Source: an uncultured Bacillales bacterium (GTDB taxonomy: Bacteria > Bacillota_I > Bacilli_A > RF39 > UBA660). From it: DNA of 64,000 nucleotides. Of this stretch, positions 49,651 through 57,652 are shown one piece after another. Location of the stretch: the NCBI GenBank assembly GCA_947571655.1, contig CANOYR010000003.1:3408-67407 (forward strand), given 5' to 3'. Numbering within the stretch: the stretch's first letter is position 1; the number at the start of each line of letters is the position of its first letter. Both the position numbers and the translations under genes were made by a program. The notes below the pieces were generated by a model. That model made no database searches and was not told where the DNA came from. It worked only from the letters and a program-made list of their open reading frames with translations.

Positions 49651-51228
49651 TGTCAATTTTTTTTAAAAATGTCAGTAAAATCGTTTTGAGAAAATGTCAG
49701 TTTGAAGTATAGTCATAGTAAGATCAAAAGATCAATTTTTGATGTGAGAAGATTATACTTCTTTTCTTTGTTAGTCAAGAATCAAGATAAACGACTGAAG
49801 TCGTCCTTGACTAACAACCATGATTTAGACAATAGTACATATTACTGTGAGAAGTAATAGGAGGTAACCCTTTTCTCCAAGGGGGATTTATAGATTTATG
49901 AGTTTTAGAAGAGTTAATATTGGAACTAGATTTCGTTATTTTGATATTTCTTTTTAACGAGGTATTAAAGTCTTTAACGGTATGTAAGTCATACCAAGTA
50001 TCATTAAATAAAATATGTTCAGTACCATCAAGAAATGTATATACTCTAACAGATTTGCTAGTTGGGAGATATACTTTCTCATTATTTTTTAATATTACAT
50101 GATAGACTTTATTGTATTTTAAGTAGGAATTATGAAATACCTTATGCTCACTCCAAACAGCTAATTGTTTGTTATAATCAAAATCATTGTCTAGACATAT
50201 GAAATGATTTTTGGTATTATCAATAGGAAGAGCGAATCTAGCGTTGTATTTGGGGATAAAGACATCGTTTAAGTATTGATTTGCCTCTTCAATTGTATGT
50301 ATGTGTTTCTTTTTGAGCTCTTTATATAAACGATCTTGAAAAGTTCTCCATAGTCTTTCAATCCTGCCTTTAGCACGTGGATTGATAGAAATAATATCTG
50401 TTCCAATATGTTCTAACATATTAGCGAAACGGGTATTTTTTATTTGTTTACCTTGAAGTTCGTCTTCTAAGGTTAACTCCTTTTTAGGAGATTTAAAAAC
50501 GGTTCTATAATCGGTATATAGATATTCAGGAATGCCATAGTTTTGAATTGTTTGTTTCATAATCATTTGATATCCGAAAATAGTTTCTTCTTTATCAAAG
50601 AAACAAGAGGTTACAGTACCAGTGGAATCATCGATTCCACCATGAAGATAGTAATATTTATCATCACCATAGAACCATTGGTGTTTCGATGCATCAACTT
50701 GAATTAATTCTCCAGCATATTCTTTTCTTTCTCTAGGAGGATAAGATTTTTTATGTTTTTTATATTTATGAGGAGATTCAATACCATTAGAAGTAAGAAG
50801 GTTATAAATAAAAGAATCAGAAACTATAATTTTGTGATAATCTTCTAAAATGTCATTAAAATGGTAGAAATTCCAACCTTCATATTCTTTATGATACAGA
50901 TCTATAATTTTATTTTTTAGTTCTTCTGAATATCCACGATGAGTGGATCTATTTCTATTTTTATGAGAAATACTTTTAATGCCATCTTTTAAGTAAGCCT
51001 TTTTCTTTCTATATATTTGTCTTTTAGATAGACCAGTTAATCTTGATACATCTGATATATTAATTTCGTTGGCAAGTAATTTTATTAAAATATTATTAAT
51101 TCTTTCTTCTTTCATATTTAATGTAATCCTTTCATTCATTTTGATTGCTCCCTTCCTAAGGAGCATATTATACCACTTACTGCCATTTTTAAAAAATGAT
51201 ATATACTGACATTATCACAAAATGATTA
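49651..51228 (-). mobile_element. Insertion sequence (~1.58 kb), DDE transposase, ISNCY/IS1202-like
   Basis: A single transposase ORF. The imperfect terminal inverted repeats start TGTCAATTTTTTTTAAAAATGTCAGTA (left) and TGTAATCATTTTGTGATAATGTCAGTA (reverse complement of the right end). An 18-bp direct repeat flanks it. It sits between the aspS terminator and the tRNA promoter. Confidence 0.5.
49811..51139 (-). CDS. DDE (rve integrase-core) transposase
   Basis: N-terminal HTH (ISDVSRLTGLSKRQIYR). DDE core: IQVDASKH...HGGIDDSTG...LYTDYRTVF...E. The start is MNERITL, after the RBS ggaagggag. Confidence 0.7.
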   Translation of the reverse strand: MNERITLNMKEERINNILIKLLANEINISDVSRLTGLSKRQIYRKKKAYLKDGIKSISHKNRNRSTHRGYSEELKNKIIDLYHKEYEGWNFYHFNDILEDYHKIIVSDSFIYNLLTSNGIESPHKYKKHKKSYPPRERKEYAGELIQVDASKHQWFYGDDKYYYLHGGIDDSTGTVTSCFFDKEETIFGYQMIMKQTIQNYGIPEYLYTDYRTVFKSPKKELTLEDELQGKQIKNTRFANMLEHIGTDIISINPRAKGRIERLWRTFQDRLYKELKKKHIHTIEEANQYLNDVFIPKYNARFALPIDNTKNHFICLDNDFDYNKQLAVWSEHKVFHNSYLKYNKVYHVILKNNEKVYLPTSKSVRVYTFLDGTEHILFNDTWYDLHTVKDFNTSLKRNIKITKSSSNINSSKTHKSINPPWRKGLPPITSHSNMYYCLNHGC

Positions 51229-51246
51229 CAATTATTTAAAGTTTTT
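51229..51246. repeat. Right copy of the 18-bp direct repeat flanking the IS
   Basis: ATTATTTAAAGTTTTTCT is identical to 49633-49650. Confidence 0.55.
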
Positions 51247-51325
51247 CTTGCATTTTTATTCATTTTGTAGTAGAATAATGCATACCTTGTATAAGAATCG
51301 GAAAGTAGCAAAGGGGGTTACATCA

Positions 51326-51745
51326 ATGAATTCTTCTTATATATTTGAATACCAAAATGAAAACGAGTTTAAGGTAAAGGAGAGAACTTTACGAAAGTAT
51401 AATATGATTGCATATAAGGAACTTGTCTTTAAAGATTATCCTGCACTAAGAAATGGGAAATTTTTAGGTAATTTAGTCTCTGAAAATAAAGAGGAAAAGA
51501 TTAAAAGTTATGAATTAGAATTGCCAAGTGATGATTCGTTTAAAAAAGTTCATGGAAATGTATATTTGCATTATACAGTTTATGAAATTGGCAAAGTAGT
51601 ATTATTAACAAATATTAGTCCAGATGAAATCTTGGAAGAAGCTCATCGTACTGAGCTTCCTACTTATAAGGGAGTATTGATTTCTAAAAGCAATCCTCAA
51701 AAAGATATTTTTAAGGTGAATTTGTTAAATATGTTGAATAAATAA
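51326..51745 (+). CDS. Hypothetical protein (orphan ORF between IS and tRNA promoter)
   Basis: RBS aaagggggt precedes ATG 51326. The 139-aa product has no recognised motif. Confidence 0.3.
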   Translation: MNSSYIFEYQNENEFKVKERTLRKYNMIAYKELVFKDYPALRNGKFLGNLVSENKEEKIKSYELELPSDDSFKKVHGNVYLHYTVYEIGKVVLLTNISPDEILEEAHRTELPTYKGVLISKSNPQKDIFKVNLLNMLNK

Positions 51746-51765
51746 AAGTAAAATCAAAAAAAATA

Positions 51766-51794
51766 TTGCAACAATTGTAAAAATATGTTACTAT
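51766..51794 (+). promoter_or_regulatory. Sigma-A-type promoter for the tRNA pair
   Basis: TTGCAA, a 17-nt spacer, then TACTAT, about 12 nt before the tRNA 5-prime end. Confidence 0.45.
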
Positions 51795-51806
51795 TAAAAA
51801 GTCGAT

Positions 51807-51883
51807 GGACCCTTAGCTCAGTTGGTTAGAGCATTCGGCTCATAACCGAACGGTCGATGGTTCGAGTCCATCAGGGTCCACCA
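51807..51883 (+). tRNA. tRNA-Met (anticodon CAT; could alternatively be tRNA-Ile2/k2C)
   Basis: 77-nt cloverleaf with 7-bp acceptor GGACCCT/AGGGTCC, D-arm GCTC-AGTTGGTTA-GAGC, anticodon loop CTCATAA, T-arm GGTTCGAGTCC, and encoded CCA. Confidence 0.85.
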
Positions 51884-51891
51884 CAAAATAT

Positions 51892-51976
51892 GCGGGTATG
51901 GCGGAATTGGCAGACGCACTAGACTTAGGATCTAGCGCCGCAAGGCTTGCAGGTTCAACTCCTGTTACCCGCACCA
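51892..51976 (+). tRNA. tRNA-Leu (anticodon TAG), class II with long variable arm
   Basis: GCGGGTATGGCGGAATTGGCAGACGC...anticodon loop CTTAGGA...variable arm...GGTTCAACTCCTGTTACCCGCACCA. Confidence 0.85.
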
Positions 51977-51988
51977 ATCGACATATAG

Positions 51989-52010
51989 CCCTTGATTTTC
52001 AAGGGTTTTT
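51989..52010 (+). terminator. Intrinsic terminator after the tRNA pair
   Basis: CCCTTG-atttt-CAAGGG followed by TTTTT. It overlaps the integrase stop codon. Confidence 0.5.
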
Positions 52011-53238
52011 ATATGCCCAAAATTATCTCTGGTCTTGTTTTGGTCTTGTTACTATTCTTTATTTCATCAATATAACTAATACTATCGAAATAATCTTTAG
52101 GAATCAAATGAATATATGTTTTCATTGTTTCATCAACGCTGGAGTGACGTAATCGCTTTGAAACTACCGTAATTGGCAGTTTTAATGATATTAACCAAGA
52201 GGCAAAAGAATGGCGAAAATCGTGTAATCTAAAGTTTCCTTGAGTAATATTTGTTTTCTTCAAATATTTATTTACAGCATTACAGAGTGAATTCTCAGAT
52301 ATTGGTTCATCTTTACCAAATATAAACCATGTTTCTTTAAAGTTAGGATCTTTCATACAAATTAACTTCCATTGGTGTATTTTCTCATTTAATTGTTTAT
52401 CTAGAGGCATTACATCTTTAGAAGATGGTGTTTTTGGATCTTTTAAATATCTTTTTTGTCCTTTCTTTTTTTTACTCATTGTATGATTTACAGTTAGAGT
52501 AGAATTTTCATAAGAATAATCTATCCATCTAAAGGCCATTAATTCTCCCGGTCTAGGCCCATTTGAGTAAAACAAATCAAAGATAGTATGATATTTATCA
52601 TCTTTTTTCGTTACTTCTAATAGTTTTAAATACTGTTCATAGGAAATTATATTGTATTTTTTTTCTTTTCTTTGATTAGCAATCATCTTTTTAGTGCCAA
52701 ACTTTCCGACTTTTCTAATTGGATTAGTCACAATTAACTCATTACTAACCGCAAATTCATACATCGCATTTACATAAGAATGTATTGCGTTTAAAAAAGA
52801 AAGTGAGTATTTTTTTTCTTTTTTTCCTCGAATGTATGTGGAATCTATTTTTTTGTCTTGCCATTGCTTATATTTGTCGCTAGTGTATGATATTATTTTT
52901 TTTACTCCTTCAGTTGGTAAAAAATGTTGTTCTAATCTGTTTTCAATAATCATTAAGCTATCATCATCTATTTTATGTTTTTTTGATTCTATGTACATCT
53001 TGAAAAGTTCATTATTGTTTATTTTTCTTACACCATTTGTAGATAATTGATTTTTATTATTGCTTAGTTCTTTAATAGCGTTTTCATATCCTTCTTTACC
53101 TAACCACATATTTCCATGATTGTCTAATCTTTTTGTAATCTGTTTTCCATTTACATAGGGTCTAATATAATATCTCGTTTGTCCATTTACTTTTTCTGGA
53201 TATTCATAAATAGGTATTGTTTTCTTTGATTTTGGCAT
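52009..53238 (-). CDS. int: Tyrosine site-specific integrase
   Basis: C-terminal catalytic domain with R...HDFRHSFAS...RLRHSSVDETMKTYIHL (R-H-R-Y). Confidence 0.85.
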   Translation of the reverse strand: MPKSKKTIPIYEYPEKVNGQTRYYIRPYVNGKQITKRLDNHGNMWLGKEGYENAIKELSNNKNQLSTNGVRKINNNELFKMYIESKKHKIDDDSLMIIENRLEQHFLPTEGVKKIISYTSDKYKQWQDKKIDSTYIRGKKEKKYSLSFLNAIHSYVNAMYEFAVSNELIVTNPIRKVGKFGTKKMIANQRKEKKYNIISYEQYLKLLEVTKKDDKYHTIFDLFYSNGPRPGELMAFRWIDYSYENSTLTVNHTMSKKKKGQKRYLKDPKTPSSKDVMPLDKQLNEKIHQWKLICMKDPNFKETWFIFGKDEPISENSLCNAVNKYLKKTNITQGNFRLHDFRHSFASWLISLKLPITVVSKRLRHSSVDETMKTYIHLIPKDYFDSISYIDEIKNSNKTKTRPEIILGI

Positions 53239-53614
53239 ACTTTACATATTCTCCTTTCCGTATGCCCTCCTTTCAAGCACTATATTATAATACTTTTTGT
53301 GTACTTTTCAATGACATTTTGTAAATTAATTAAAAAAATCGAAAAAATGTTCGTGTTTGGTTTTTTTCTAAAACGAATTATATTATAATAAAAAAGTAAG
53401 ATATCTTATGGCACAGGTTATCAATAAATTTTCATGAAAATATATGATAATATTGGATAAACATAGTATGTCGCAGTATTTGTACTAATGTTTATTAATT
53501 TTAATTATGGATTAAAAAGGGTAGAGGAGAGCGATGTAGTATGTATATTAAGTATTTGTATTTTATTTTAAAAGATTATAGATTGTATGATCGGTTTATA
53601 GAATATTTAGAAAA

Positions 53615-53642
53615 TAAAAAAGACACTAATTAATGGTGTCTT
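53615..53642 (-). terminator. Intrinsic terminator of the minus-strand lipoprotein gene
   Basis: AGACACTA-atta-ATGGTGTCT with a U-run on the minus strand. Confidence 0.45.
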
Positions 53643-53969
53643 TTAATCTACGCATTCAATACTTTTTAAATCTATAGAATAATTTTCAATATTTGTAATA
53701 TTGCCTGAATACAAGCATTCAAAATTTTTTGTTTCTTTAGCTTCTAAGTTGTTTACTATACACAAATCCTCTTCTTTTAATGAACCACTTTTATATTCTA
53801 AATTAATCCATAAGGTATTACAACTCTTTGAACTATTATTTTTGATTGTTCCTGTGACCCAATTCAAATTTATTTTCTCAGACCAATTCATTTGAGATAT
53901 TTCATATTTTGTATTCCTACATCCACACAAACACAGACAGCATAGTCCGATTAATAATATTTTTTTCAT
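53643..53969 (-). CDS. Small lipoprotein (hypothetical)
   Basis: RBS gaaaggagt, then MKKILLIGLCCLCLCGC (signal peptide plus lipobox). The product is 108 aa. Confidence 0.4.
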   Translation of the reverse strand: MKKILLIGLCCLCLCGCRNTKYEISQMNWSEKINLNWVTGTIKNNSSKSCNTLWINLEYKSGSLKEEDLCIVNNLEAKETKNFECLYSGNITNIENYSIDLKSIECVD

Positions 53970-54059
53970 ATTACTCCTTTCTGTCTCTATACTAGCAGAC
54001 TTGTTTGATTTCATACTATCATATTTAAAGCAAAAAGAAAAGATACTATTTTTCAGTAT

Positions 54060-54485
54060 CTACTTTCTTTCTATGCAATTAAATTTTAATACTTCATCTT
54101 CTTCAAGTTTCTTCATTTTTTCAATATACGAAATTTTATCATTAGAATTGTATATAGAAGTAAAACTTGAATGAACAATTTTACCATTTCGGCTGGCTTT
54201 GCAATCTTGCACTTTTTCATCTGTCTCTTTACACCATTCTTTATGAGATTGTTCATTTTCAATTGCTTCCGAGAGTGTTTCATAACCAAAAAATGCAACT
54301 ATTTTTTCTTTTAAAATATATTTTCGACTTCTATCTAAATAATAGGTGTATTCAAGATAATTTTCGTCTTCCTTACTACCACTTGAGCAAATTGTATAGG
54401 GGTGAGGTTCGTTAGTGGTAAACGCAATGGTTCCAATTAGTAAAATACTAACAATGGTGATAATAATCAAAACTTTCTTTTTCAT
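54060..54485 (-). CDS. Membrane-anchored hypothetical protein (co-transcribed with repressor)
   Basis: MKKKVLIIITIVSILLIGTIAF N-terminal TM anchor. The start overlaps the repressor stop (ATGA). Confidence 0.35.
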   Translation of the reverse strand: MKKKVLIIITIVSILLIGTIAFTTNEPHPYTICSSGSKEDENYLEYTYYLDRSRKYILKEKIVAFFGYETLSEAIENEQSHKEWCKETDEKVQDCKASRNGKIVHSSFTSIYNSNDKISYIEKMKKLEEDEVLKFNCIERK

Positions 54486-54814
54486 TTTATTTTTTTCTCC
54501 TTTAACACATCGACAATCTGTAGGGCTTTATGTAATTCATCAATTGTTAAGTCATCACCAACCATTAATCCAGATTGTTTTAATAATCGTTTTATTTGCT
54601 CAATTTCTTCTAAACCATCAATTTCATTCCCCAATAAATAATCAATTGTTACTTGAAATTGATTTGCTATTTCTTTAATTATTTCTAATGATGGTTGACT
54701 AATACCAGATTCCCAATAGGAAACTGTATTTTTTGCAACACCCAATTTTTCTCCTAGTTCTTGTTGAGTTAAATTTGCTTGTTTTCTTAGCTCTTTTAAT
54801 TTGTTTCCAAACAA
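54482..54814 (-). CDS. XRE-family HTH repressor (cI-like)
   Basis: HTH KLKELRKQANLTQQELGEKLGVAKNTVSYWESG. The likely start is TTG after the RBS aaaggtggag. The ORF-track start, GTG at 54826, is also possible. Confidence 0.7.
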   Translation of the reverse strand: MFGNKLKELRKQANLTQQELGEKLGVAKNTVSYWESGISQPSLEIIKEIANQFQVTIDYLLGNEIDGLEEIEQIKRLLKQSGLMVGDDLTIDELHKALQIVDVLKEKKIK

Positions 54815-54831
54815 GTGAATCTCCACCTTTT

Positions 54832-54853
54832 CATATATACTAAAGTATATATG
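54832..54853. promoter_or_regulatory. Perfect 10/10 palindromic operator candidate at the repressor start
   Basis: CATATATACT-aa-AGTATATATG lies immediately upstream of the repressor RBS. Confidence 0.4.
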
Positions 54854-54943
54854 AATTATACCATATAAGTTGATAGATTAGTATGAAAAAGTCAATAAAT
54901 ATGAATAATTATCGTAAAATAATTAAAAAATTGATTTTATATA

Positions 54944-54972
54944 TTGACTTTGTTCAACAATATTGATATATT
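54944..54972 (+). promoter_or_regulatory. Rightward early promoter (P_R-like)
   Basis: TTGACT, a 17-nt spacer, then TATATT, oriented towards the cro-like and replication genes. Confidence 0.45.
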
Positions 54973-55333
54973 TGTATTGTAGCAAGGATAAGTTACTTGT
55001 GAAGAATAAAAAAAGAAGTTAAGTTCTGTCGTCGAAAAATAGAAACTTAACTCCTAGGCAATTACTTTTTAACTACAACTTTAATTAATGAAATATCACT
55101 AATTTTAATTGTAATATCGTTATTAAGTAATCGTTTTAATAGAGTGATCATTAATTAAGACCTTTCTTTTTGTGCGTGAGCACCTAACTGTATTGGCCTC
55201 CTTCCAATGACACACCTCCTGCTACAAAAGACATTTAATGGCATTTGTAACACTTATAAAATAACACAAACGTCCATTATTGTCAATCAATGTATGGACT
55301 TTTTCTATACAAAAAAATATTGAAGCGAAGGGA

Positions 55334-55585
55334 GTGAAGACGATCGAATTAAAATCGCTAGATAGATTGTTTTATAAGGCTCTAGGAAGAGAATTATCTC
55401 TTATTAGACATCGTAAAGGAATCAATCTAAAAGAAATTGGAGAAGAACTGTCTTGTAGTGCACAAATGGTCGATAATTTTGAGCTTGGAAAGTGTAGAGT
55501 GTCCGAGGAAAAATTCGCCAGATATTGCAACTATTTAGGTATCGAACCAATTTTAGAAATTACAGTAAAATTTAAGAAAGAGTAG
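55334..55585 (+). CDS. Cro/XRE-like HTH protein
   Basis: HTH LSLIRHRKGINLKEIGEELSCSAQMVDNFELGK. The start is uncertain: TTG 55280 or GTG 55334. Confidence 0.45.
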   Translation: MKTIELKSLDRLFYKALGRELSLIRHRKGINLKEIGEELSCSAQMVDNFELGKCRVSEEKFARYCNYLGIEPILEITVKFKKE

Positions 55586-55593
55586 GGTTAATT

Positions 55594-56322
55594 ATGCAAC
55601 ATAGTTTTGATGTAGAAATAGCACAAAAGTATGGGATTTTGGAAGCAATTTTATTGGAAAATATTTATTATTGGATTAAAAAAAATGAAGCCAATAACAA
55701 GCATTTTTATGATGGAAAATATTGGACCTATAATTCAAGAAAAGCATTCGCCGAAATATTCCCATATGCTAGTGAAAAACAAATACGAACAGCCTTAGAA
55801 AAACTGATTAAAAATGGTTTAATTATCACGGGAAATTATAACCAAGATGGCAGAGATAGAACATTGTGGTATTCACTTACAGATGGGGGAATTTCACTGT
55901 TTCTAAAAAGGCAAATGCAACAGACTAACAAGTCAGACACACTTGCCCAAGAGGGCGAACCATTACCAGATAATAAACCAGATATATTACCCCCTTATAT
56001 TCCCCCTAAGGGAGAAACCAAGGAAAACAACAAAGAATTAATCGAGCAAATAATTGATTATCTTAACAGCAAAGGTGGTACATCATTCAAATCCACGAAT
56101 AAGCAAACAGTACAATTGATTAATGCTAGAATCAGACAAGGATACAACCTAGAAGATTTTAAAGACGTAATTTGGTATTGCTATTGTGAGTGGGTTCAAG
56201 AACCGTTTAAATTCAAAAACGGAAAAATGAGTGACACATATTTTAGACCATCAACACTGTTTAGAGAAACAAATTTTGAAAATTATTTACAAGAATATCG
56301 TAAAAGTATAAGTGGAACGTAA
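55594..56322 (+). CDS. Phage replisome organizer / DnaD-like replication protein with conserved phage C-terminal domain
   Basis: N-terminal winged-helix-like region (YGILEAILLENIYYWIKKNE...YWTYNSRKAFAEIFPYASEKQIRTALEKLIKNGLI). It lies immediately upstream of the DnaB helicase, and the ORFs overlap. Confidence 0.5.
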   Translation: MQHSFDVEIAQKYGILEAILLENIYYWIKKNEANNKHFYDGKYWTYNSRKAFAEIFPYASEKQIRTALEKLIKNGLIITGNYNQDGRDRTLWYSLTDGGISLFLKRQMQQTNKSDTLAQEGEPLPDNKPDILPPYIPPKGETKENNKELIEQIIDYLNSKGGTSFKSTNKQTVQLINARIRQGYNLEDFKDVIWYCYCEWVQEPFKFKNGKMSDTYFRPSTLFRETNFENYLQEYRKSISGT

Positions 56323-57652
56323 GAGTTTTGTTACAGATGAAAACGAAATAGAAGAATTCTTACTTGCTTGTATATTCCTTTACCCAGAAGTTACCAAAGA
56401 AATTAACTTTGAAGATAAATTTTTCGTTAATAAAAAGTTATTGAACATGTTTAAAAAAGTCTATCAAGAATATGGCTATTTGGATATTCCATTAATTGTT
56501 CAACTTGCGAAAGATAAACAAAAAGCATTAGATAGAATAATGGCATTAATGGAATATGTTGTAATAAAAGACAGCACAAGTTCCTATTACCAAAGATTAA
56601 AAGAAAAATATATCAAAGATGAAACTAACAAATTGGTTGCAAAACTTAATACGTTAGAAATCGATTATCAAGAATTTACTGATTGTGTTAAAGAACTGAA
56701 TGAAATTGAAATTTCTAACAACAATGGTTTATTAACAACCAAGGATATAGTTATAGATGAAAAAATCGAAAGAGAATATACAAACATAAGTGAGTTAGAT
56801 TATTTATTGAAAGGTATAGAGTATGGAAAATTATCGTTATGGAGTGGTATTACTAATCATGGAAAAACAACATTAATGATTCAATTTGCTAAAGAATGTT
56901 TGAAACAACATAAAAAGATATTCTACTTTAGTGGAGAACAATCAGCTAGTGAATTTAAAAATTATTTATATGTTGGTATGTGTAGGAAAGAGCAATTGGA
57001 TTTTATAAAAGATTCACATAATGACAAGATTTATGATACAAAACCCAAACAAGAAGTAATTGACTATTTCGATGATATATATTCAAGCGATTTATATATC
57101 TATGACAATAATATGTTAGATAATACAGTGACAAATATGCTTAAAACAATGAAAAATGCACTTCATAAAGGAGTACGAATATTCTTTATAGATAATTTTA
57201 TGCAACTTGATAATAGCGAAAGATTAGAGGAACAAACAAGGATAGTAGAGTTGTTCAAAAGATTTGCAAGAGATAATAATGTGATTGTTAATCTTGTAGC
57301 ACACCCTAGAAAGACTCAATTTATGAAATCACGATTAACTATTTTCGATATAGCAGGAACACAAAATATAGCTAATAAAAGTTCTAATATATGTACAATC
57401 ATGAGAACGGACATTTTGTCTGATACGGAAAAAAGCGAAATTGGATATATGCTGTTTAAAAGTGGTTTTAATATAGAACGATGTGATGGAATAGTTGAAG
57501 TTATAAAAACAAAAGGAAACAATTGCAAGATGGTTGGTTTAATTTATGATCAAGAATTTAAAACATATAAGCAATCTCCTAAATTATCTCAAGACGAATT
57601 AAAAAGTTTGGAAATAAAGTATTCAAAAAAAGGTGGAAGAAGGCTTGACTGA
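56312..57652 (+). CDS. dnaB: Replicative DNA helicase (DnaB family)
   Basis: DnaB N-terminal domain plus a RecA-like core: Walker A SGITNHGKTT, Walker B IFFIDNF, and H4 motifs. Confidence 0.75.
   Translation: MERKSFVTDENEIEEFLLACIFLYPEVTKEINFEDKFFVNKKLLNMFKKVYQEYGYLDIPLIVQLAKDKQKALDRIMALMEYVVIKDSTSSYYQRLKEKYIKDETNKLVAKLNTLEIDYQEFTDCVKELNEIEISNNNGLLTTKDIVIDEKIEREYTNISELDYLLKGIEYGKLSLWSGITNHGKTTLMIQFAKECLKQHKKIFYFSGEQSASEFKNYLYVGMCRKEQLDFIKDSHNDKIYDTKPKQEVIDYFDDIYSSDLYIYDNNMLDNTVTNMLKTMKNALHKGVRIFFIDNFMQLDNSERLEEQTRIVELFKRFARDNNVIVNLVAHPRKTQFMKSRLTIFDIAGTQNIANKSSNICTIMRTDILSDTEKSEIGYMLFKSGFNIERCDGIVEVIKTKGNNCKMVGLIYDQEFKTYKQSPKLSQDELKSLEIKYSKKGGRRLD

Follow-up and report, generated by a model that had tools for sequence, protein, structure and literature searches.

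Two predicted membrane-tethered proteins encoded beside a prophage repressor in uncultured gut Bacilli, candidates for superinfection exclusion

What are two small genes doing between the repressor and the integrase of a prophage? We addressed this question in a 64,000-nucleotide stretch of DNA from an uncultured Bacillales bacterium (GenBank assembly GCA_947571655.1, contig CANOYR010000003.1, positions 3,408 to 67,407), hereafter called the window. From about 51.9 kb onwards, towards its 3' end, the window contains a prophage next to genes for tRNA-Met and tRNA-Leu (51807-51976; ARAGORN, Rfam). The locus is its lysogeny module; the phage is a temperate one that has integrated at tRNA-Leu, and its host is an uncultured gut member of the Bacilli. 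Read from right to left on the minus strand, the module comprises a gene for an XRE repressor, one for a 141-amino-acid (aa) anchored protein (TM141), one for a 108-aa lipoprotein, a 400-bp spacer and the gene for a tyrosine integrase (int; Table 1). On the strength of position and predicted topology, the best-supported function of both proteins is that of membrane-level superinfection-exclusion (Sie) factors in the lysogen, a reading on which we consider the chances evenly balanced.

An earlier note on this DNA had put both proteins forward as candidates for exclusion or host interaction. That proposal retains the support of position, translational coupling, predicted membrane tethering, synteny and a gene layout shared with phage TP-J34; what it lacks are matches in PADLOC, to the exclusion lipoprotein Ltp and in phage records. 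The slot itself is a well-known Sie and moron slot of Firmicute temperate phages, and the arrangement will not surprise a specialist. New here is its occupation by YehR-like and FxLYD families, which had not been linked to it before.

Structure and predicted anchoring of the two proteins

As the earlier note had read it, the repressor gene runs directly into the TM141 gene. The repressor stop codon TGA (54484-54482) and the TM141 start codon ATG (54485-54483) have the four nucleotides ATGA (54485-54482) in common. At its N-terminus, TM141 has MKKK and then a hydrophobic segment of 19 residues (Kyte-Doolittle 2.77). In the AlphaFold2 (AF2) model, a helix at residues 3-23 precedes a folded alpha/beta domain, with a predicted local distance difference test score (pLDDT) of 84 overall and above 90 across the ectodomain.

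Searches with TM141 found no family in Pfam, PHROGs, PADLOC or NCBIfam, and a scan of GTDB genomes with the TM141 alignment yielded no relatives. Among 1.84 billion cluster representatives, phmmer detected four homologues, which are 61%, 45%, 34% and 34% identical to TM141. The three most distant carry genuine lipoboxes (LCG/C, ITG/C), and P0019 and P0020 (33-34% identical) are true lipoproteins. TM141 of the window has no lipobox; its invariant Gly18 aligns to the lipobox glycine of the relatives. Four cysteines (Cys33, Cys85, Cys95 and Cys137) are also invariant in the alignment. Taken together, the lipoboxes of the relatives, the former lipobox glycine and the invariant cysteines therefore indicate that the TM141 family is an extracytoplasmic, membrane-tethered domain. 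Judging from the alignment, a lipid anchor was apparently swapped for a hydrophobic anchor in the lineage of the window protein. The four conserved cysteines may form disulfides.

The fold of the TM141 model agrees with the solved structure of YehR, and thus resembles the E. coli YehR/DUF1307 lipoproteins. The two differ in sequence (8% identity) and setting: YehR is chromosomal, whereas the prophage-encoded TM141 has an uncleaved-looking anchor and four conserved cysteines. A profile search against PDB sequences gave nothing significant and did not recover YehR (2joe), and no member of the TM141 alignment matched Pfam DUF1307 at E<=10. A Foldseek search of the model, a check that the earlier note had proposed, returned nothing from BFVD at E<1e-3. 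Our literature search on DUF1307/YehR brought up nothing functional.

The coupling of TM141 to an XRE protein raises the alternative that it works with the repressor as a regulator or toxin, namely as an ImmA-like protease, a membrane sensor or the toxin of an XRE antitoxin. Many Firmicute phages have an M78 (ImmA) gene beside the repressor, as seen in orf3 of TP-J34 and in the TM141-bearing relative L099. However, TM141 has neither an HExxH motif nor a Peptidase_M78 match, its homologues are lipoproteins, and L099 holds its M78 gene in addition to the TM141 homologue. Moreover, just three or four residues (MKKK) are predicted to be cytoplasmic, which leaves nothing to contact the repressor, and the four invariant cysteines suggest a folded domain outside the cytoplasm. 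With the wrong topology and no protease motif, we rejected protease, sensor and toxin alike, and regard a repressor-partner role as highly improbable.

The second protein is encoded on the same strand. Its mechanically called open reading frame (ORF) starts at ATG 54014 and spans 123 aa. This start has no Shine-Dalgarno (SD) sequence, and we rejected it in favour of the 108-aa form, because an SD (AAAGGAG, 53974-53980) lies 7 nt ahead of ATG 53969 and the homologues all begin there, at MKK. The N-terminus reads MKKILLIGLCCLCLCGC, with a signal peptide, MKKILLIGLCCLCLCG, that runs up to the lipobox Cys. The signal peptide (53919-53969) is unusually rich in cysteine (LCCLCLCGC, five in eight residues), and alleles with mature domains of only 30-45% identity share it almost perfectly, in their DNA as well.

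Downstream, a 9-bp stem is followed by a U-run. This terminator has a folding free energy (dG) of -9.5 kcal/mol and a z-score of -3.12, and one of 200 shuffled sequences folded as well. A consensus scanner overlooked it because its loop is 9 nt long. The structure overlaps the 3' end of a convergent small ORF, so that the two genes have this hairpin in common, and an equivalent hairpin follows the lipoprotein homologue in L104. With SD, lipobox and hairpin in place, the earlier description of a same-strand 108-aa lipoprotein with its own terminator holds.

The mature domain of the lipoprotein aligns to nearly the whole NCBIfam model FxLYD_dom (NF038353), covering profile positions 6-70 of 71 with 21.6 bits (E=1.5e-4), just under the curated cutoff of 23 bits. 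An orthologue that is 74% identical (P0004) scores 28.4 bits, above the cutoff, and seven of the eight family members match the model. On these profile scores we assign the lipoprotein family to FxLYD, with the window member at the threshold. The AF2 model (pLDDT 87) is a six-stranded beta-sandwich, which fits this assignment. Typical FxLYD members, such as the one in L106, differ in being host membrane proteins rather than prophage lipoproteins. We found no usable family for the lipoprotein in Pfam, PHROGs or PADLOC, nothing significant in a profile search against PDB sequences, and no literature on FxLYD. Both ectodomains are acidic (isoelectric points 5.5 and 5.0).

The earlier verdict of no recognisable family for either protein thus stands for Pfam, PHROGs and PADLOC, and gives way to the FxLYD match of the lipoprotein and the YehR-like fold of TM141. 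Neither protein showed homology to structural or housekeeping proteins.

Repressor linkage, cassette exchange and selection in related prophages

At least 12 metagenomic contigs carry the identical module, and samples with this exact prophage include SRR29841523, SRR29686424, SRR36181225 and ERZ14864025. The two families are tiny: among billions of proteins they amount to four clusters for TM141 and eight for the lipoprotein, all from the lysogeny modules of one host lineage. Scans of IMG/VR with both family alignments gave no relatives, and a megablast search of 50,697 phage records with the locus returned a tRNA match only. Leaving aside L098, a contig of 1 kb, every readable context places both families in the lysogeny module of a prophage, 3' of the repressor gene and on its strand. 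Members of either family adjoin the repressor directly, the lipoprotein coming second where an intervening gene is present, and this linkage extends to homologues of about 30-45% identity (Table 1). Downstream of P0019, L099 continues with an M78 peptidase gene, a 105-aa gene and a gene for a 344-aa integrase; the P0019 and P0020 prophages carry different integrases.

BLASTN comparison of the module with its relatives revealed sharp mosaic boundaries at gene or domain borders. Against L007, identity is 90% from 55300 to 53914, a point two codons beyond the lipobox Cys; it disappears over the mature core and returns at 53695, about 16 codons ahead of the stop codon. L013 and L015/L016 have these same break points. 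Thus in L007, L013 and L015 the mature core (53914-53695) has been replaced, whereas the leader, signal peptide and 3' end remain 85-90% identical. A second break in L015/L016 coincides with the TM141 coding sequence (54479-54061), in place of which stands the gene for an unrelated 112-aa protein without a membrane signal. Between the two slots, a 90-nt leader is conserved, with a hairpin, a T-run, the extended -10-like element TGCTAGTAT and AAAGGAG. Both slots behave as exchangeable cassettes.

With its conserved leader, the lipoprotein gene resembles a classical moron composed of promoter, gene and terminator. Hardly any position of the stretch AAGTCTGCTAGTATAGAGACAGAAAGGAGTAAT-ATG varies among L007, L008, L013 and L015, L104 retains most of it, and from the sequence we would expect promoter activity. 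The likeness to morons of the HK97/lambda type extends to the bracketing of the gene by hairpin and T-run, promoter-like leader and a good terminator, and to its varying occurrence, since phages that are otherwise collinear may have it, lack it or carry another allele in its place. It differs from these morons in that the homologues of L014, L104 and L105 directly follow the repressor, and in that the promoter is a predicted one. The hairpin at 54041-54061, conserved in L007, L013 and L015, was rejected as a strong terminator, its z-score of -0.64 being no better than that of shuffled sequence; it could be a leaky terminator that delimits the lipoprotein cassette on the left.

Pairwise ratios of nonsynonymous to synonymous substitution rates (dN/dS) of 0.07-0.49 indicate purifying selection on both genes. 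Between the window lipoprotein and its type-A orthologues the ratio is 0.07-0.21, among other allele pairs at most 0.36, and for TM141 it is 0.18-0.49. TM141 evolves faster than the repressor and DnaB of the same genome pair (0.18 versus 0.03 and 0.06).

One related prophage, sampled five times (L008-L012), is decayed. It lacks every lytic gene and the helix-turn-helix (HTH) half of its repressor, and still has an intact TM141 homologue, lipoprotein, small ORF and integrase. In L008 (e.g. 2638-2932), the repressor is cut to its C-terminal 52 codons and lies beside an inverted Phg_2220_C fragment and a LysR regulator. We count the retention of both genes and int in this remnant in favour of exclusion.

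The same survival also suits lysogenic conversion, in which the two proteins would serve the gut bacterium at its surface, in adhesion, envelope stress, ligand or nutrient binding or immune evasion, and would not act against phages. Surface-tethered Ig-like and alpha/beta domains, folds known mostly from chromosomal envelope proteins, and an allelic diversity of the lipoprotein core that fits host- or immune-driven variation as well are all in line with such a role. However, the restriction of the two families to a few lysogeny modules of one host lineage speaks against it, as does the tight repressor linkage, which is the pattern of genes for phage-phage competition. Scans with Pfam and NCBIfam detected no adhesin-type repeats or known ligand-binding motifs. 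We consider lysogenic conversion unlikely.

Superinfection exclusion compared with known systems

How could the two proteins exclude incoming phages? In the mechanism that we propose, the repressor promoter would drive a transcript for the repressor and, through translational coupling at the ATGA, for TM141, so that TM141 output would be proportional to that of the repressor. The lipoprotein would be supplied by read-through as well as from its own promoter, its gene forming a putative self-contained moron cassette of leaky hairpin, promoter-like leader, gene and terminator. Both proteins would face outwards from the cytoplasmic membrane of the monoderm host, where they could hinder an incoming phage between adsorption and DNA entry. 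Candidate targets are the tail tip, the tape-measure protein or a membrane receptor, as with Ltp of TP-J34 and lactococcal Sie2009. The acidic ectodomains, the allelic replacement of the lipoprotein core and the slot-wise exchange fit frequency-dependent competition between phages.

The overall arrangement is reminiscent of S. thermophilus phage TP-J34, in which the 142-aa lipoprotein Ltp is expressed in the lysogen and blocks DNA injection. Its genes run in the order int, ltp, orf3, the cI-like repressor gene crh and the divergent cro, with ltp on the repressor strand and orf3, between ltp and repressor, encoding an M78 (ImmA) protease (PMC3952083). The order in the window (int, lipoprotein, 141-aa gene, repressor, opposite-strand cro) is identical, and its 108-aa protein, too, has a signal peptide with a lipobox Cys, as judged by pattern. 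However, the two lipoproteins have no sequence similarity, and that of the window lacks the Ltp repeat domain. Whereas Ltp is reportedly built of helical, HTH-like repeats, the models predict an all-beta sandwich for the window lipoprotein and an alpha/beta, YehR-like fold for TM141.

Sie2009-type proteins of lactococcal P335 prophages are small, N-terminally anchored, encoded between repressor and integrase and expressed in the lysogen, where they reportedly block DNA injection by phages of the 936 type. TM141 is likewise N-terminally anchored, by its predicted helix, and likewise encoded between repressor and integrase. It differs from them in sequence, no similarity having been found through PHROGs or the phage records, and in the lineage of its host. 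No solved structure of Sie2009 turned up for comparison.

Several results weigh against exclusion. We detected no kinship, in sequence or fold, between either protein and any proven Sie or defence protein. PADLOC-DB 2.0 gave no defence family at E<=10 for either, PHROGs no match below E=0.035 and no entry with a Sie annotation, Pfam no Lipoprotein_Ltp match at E<=1, and tblastn of both proteins against the 50,697 phage records no match. YehR and FxLYD folds occur mainly in chromosomal proteins with no assigned function, the host membrane protein of L106 being an example for FxLYD, and are thus functionally uninformative. The 112-aa protein that replaces TM141 in L015 has no membrane signal, so the TM141 slot is not reserved for surface proteins. 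The lipobox of the window lipoprotein, LCGC, has an atypical Cys at -2 where relatives have LSGC or ITGC, a call made by pattern, and the alignments behind the two AF2 models were shallow (6 and 8 sequences).

A further alternative concerns the phage's own cycle. T5 Llp blocks the receptor of its own phage, which saves progeny from being lost to lysogens and debris, and inhibitors of secreted enzymes are commonly built as small lipoprotein beta-sandwiches. The two proteins could, by analogy, mask a receptor, or inhibit peptidoglycan hydrolases that induced siblings release and so protect against lysis from without. The predicted surface topology and repressor-linked expression would suit this role too, and related phages do encode lysins of the Amidase_2 or CHAP type. 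In L016 (2840-5778) and L105 (3113-6300), int adjoins lysis genes on the opposite strand (Amidase_2 or a large lysin; holin); this attP-type junction implies that circular or replicating phage DNA exists there. On the other side, the proposal overlaps mechanistically with exclusion and differs in the target only. We judge masking or lysin inhibition quite unlikely.

If superinfection exclusion is the function, the locus would encode, beside the repressor, two structurally new solutions to membrane-level exclusion, and would offer a first functional handle on the YehR-like and FxLYD folds, which are widespread in bacterial envelopes and uncharacterised. More tentatively, and with some doubt, we suggest that the two proteins are the founders of two new exclusion families, one YehR/DUF1307-like and one of the FxLYD type, in two independently exchangeable cassette slots. 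The locus would then be a modular surface shield whose alleles set which competing phages are excluded. The clean boundaries, with leader and signal peptide kept and the core swapped, would make it a natural system for mapping exclusion specificity, with a bearing on phage-phage competition in uncultured gut Bacilli, whose phage biology is almost unknown. If the proteins act otherwise, the locus is an ordinary moron slot. The structural assignments, the strict repressor linkage of two tiny families and the clean cassette boundaries are of modest interest in themselves.

The genetic switch and flanking features

Table 1. Coordinates of features in the window, and homologues of the two proteins in related prophages
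Feature	Position or contig	Strand	Evidence and remarks
tRNA-Leu(TAG)	51892..51976	+	ARAGORN and Rfam; directly adjoins int
Tyrosine integrase (int)	52009..53238	-	Phage_integrase E=3.9e-20; closes the lysogeny module
30-aa small ORF, MYIKYLYFILKDYRLYDRFIEYLENKKDTN	53541..53633	+	Convergent with lipoprotein gene, divergent from int; ribosome-binding site GGGAGCGATGTAnT-ATG conserved
Intrinsic terminator of lipoprotein gene	53611..53644 (hairpin 53618-53644)	-	9-bp stem, then U-run
108-aa lipoprotein, FxLYD-type beta-sandwich	53643..53969	-	Lipobox LCGC; FxLYD_dom; AF2
Conserved lipoprotein leader	53970..53997	-	Extended -10-like TGCTAGTAT (53989-53997) and SD AAAGGAG
Weak hairpin and T-run after TM141 gene	54032..54061 (hairpin 54041-54061)	-	dG -6.3, z -0.64
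TM141 (141 aa), N-terminal anchor and YehR-like ectodomain	54060..54485	-	ATG overlaps repressor stop
XRE/cI-type repressor	54482..54826	-	HTH_3 E=2.7e-19; Phage_CI_repr E=1.2e-6; PHROG 8/4/3 repressors
Putative repressor-operon promoter and operator	54832..54863	-	Extended -10 TGGTATAAT (54863-54855) and palindrome; read from sequence
Cro-like HTH gene, divergent	55280..55585	+	HTH_31 E=1.6e-7; first gene of early/replication operon
P0019, TM141 homologue	L099, L101		Directly 3' of XRE repressor
P0020, TM141 homologue	L102		Order: repressor, P0020 overlapping repressor stop, small ORF, 390-aa integrase
P0005, lipoprotein homologue	L014		Directly 3' of repressor; leader element lacking
P0024, lipoprotein homologue	L104		Directly 3' of repressor; much of leader kept
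115-aa lipoprotein homologue	L105		Canonical LLSG/C lipobox; directly 3' of repressor

The true start of the repressor is more likely TTG 54814, giving a protein of 110 aa, than GTG 54826, because the latter sits within the Shine-Dalgarno sequence AAAGGTGGAG. A cluster member derived from NCBI (P0014) is 110 aa long, in agreement with the TTG start. Upstream, a perfect 22-bp palindrome, CATATATACTAAAGTATATATG, occupies 54832-54853 and starts 2 nt past the -10 element of the putative repressor promoter. It is the sole copy in the window, even with three mismatches allowed (0.03 expected by chance), and is kept in L007 and L014. From its sequence and placement, the palindrome is likely the operator; the 450-bp switch region yielded no second or third copy.

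Between the cro and repressor promoters lies a small unit on the minus strand (55010-55286). It consists of a promoter-like TTGACA-17-TATTTT (55286-55258), a 29-codon ORF, MITLLKRLLNNDITIKISDISLIKVVVKK (about 55152-55063), and a strong terminator (dG -12, z -2.4). The window and L007/L015 differ at three positions only in this ORF, next to a repressor that is just 72% identical between the window and L015. The unit, which has no match in Rfam, may be a small RNA or a micropeptide of the genetic switch. A scan of 51000-56500 with Rfam gave the two tRNAs and no other match.

Towards the integrase, the 30-aa ORF is intact (30-32 aa) in L007, L008, L013, L015/16, L098, L102 and L104. It is always flanked by int on one side and the final gene of the repressor operon on the other, whatever accessory gene is present. 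There is no PHROG match to it, and it could be a tiny int-associated regulator. The integrase gene has a promoter-like site of its own at 53311-53284 (TTGAAA-16-TATAAT), where 11 of 12 positions match. The adjoining tRNA-Leu(TAG) gene is probably the attachment site and the end of the prophage.

On the plus strand, cro is followed by genes for a replication-initiation-type protein (Phg_2220_C), a DnaB-type helicase, a Rad52-like protein and a PD-(D/E)XK nuclease. We rejected compositional anomaly as a sign of recent acquisition, with a GC content of 22-32% throughout and no step at the accessory genes. Host genes near the prophage encode HisRS, AspRS, AlaRS, RecD2, AddA, RNase HIII and YfhO. 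The best matches of this AspRS are 83% to 'Bacillales bacterium UBA7057' and 65-69% to Ca. Faecisoma and Ca. Scybalousia, which puts the host in an uncultured gut lineage of Bacilli with very AT-rich DNA. Between AspRS and the tRNA genes, beside the prophage attachment site, lie a transposase-like ORF of 451 aa (49811-51166, minus strand), with a weak HTH_29 match only, and a 165-aa ORF without a family (51248-51745, plus strand). The interval from AspRS to the tRNA genes is occupied in L015 by genes other than these two ORFs.

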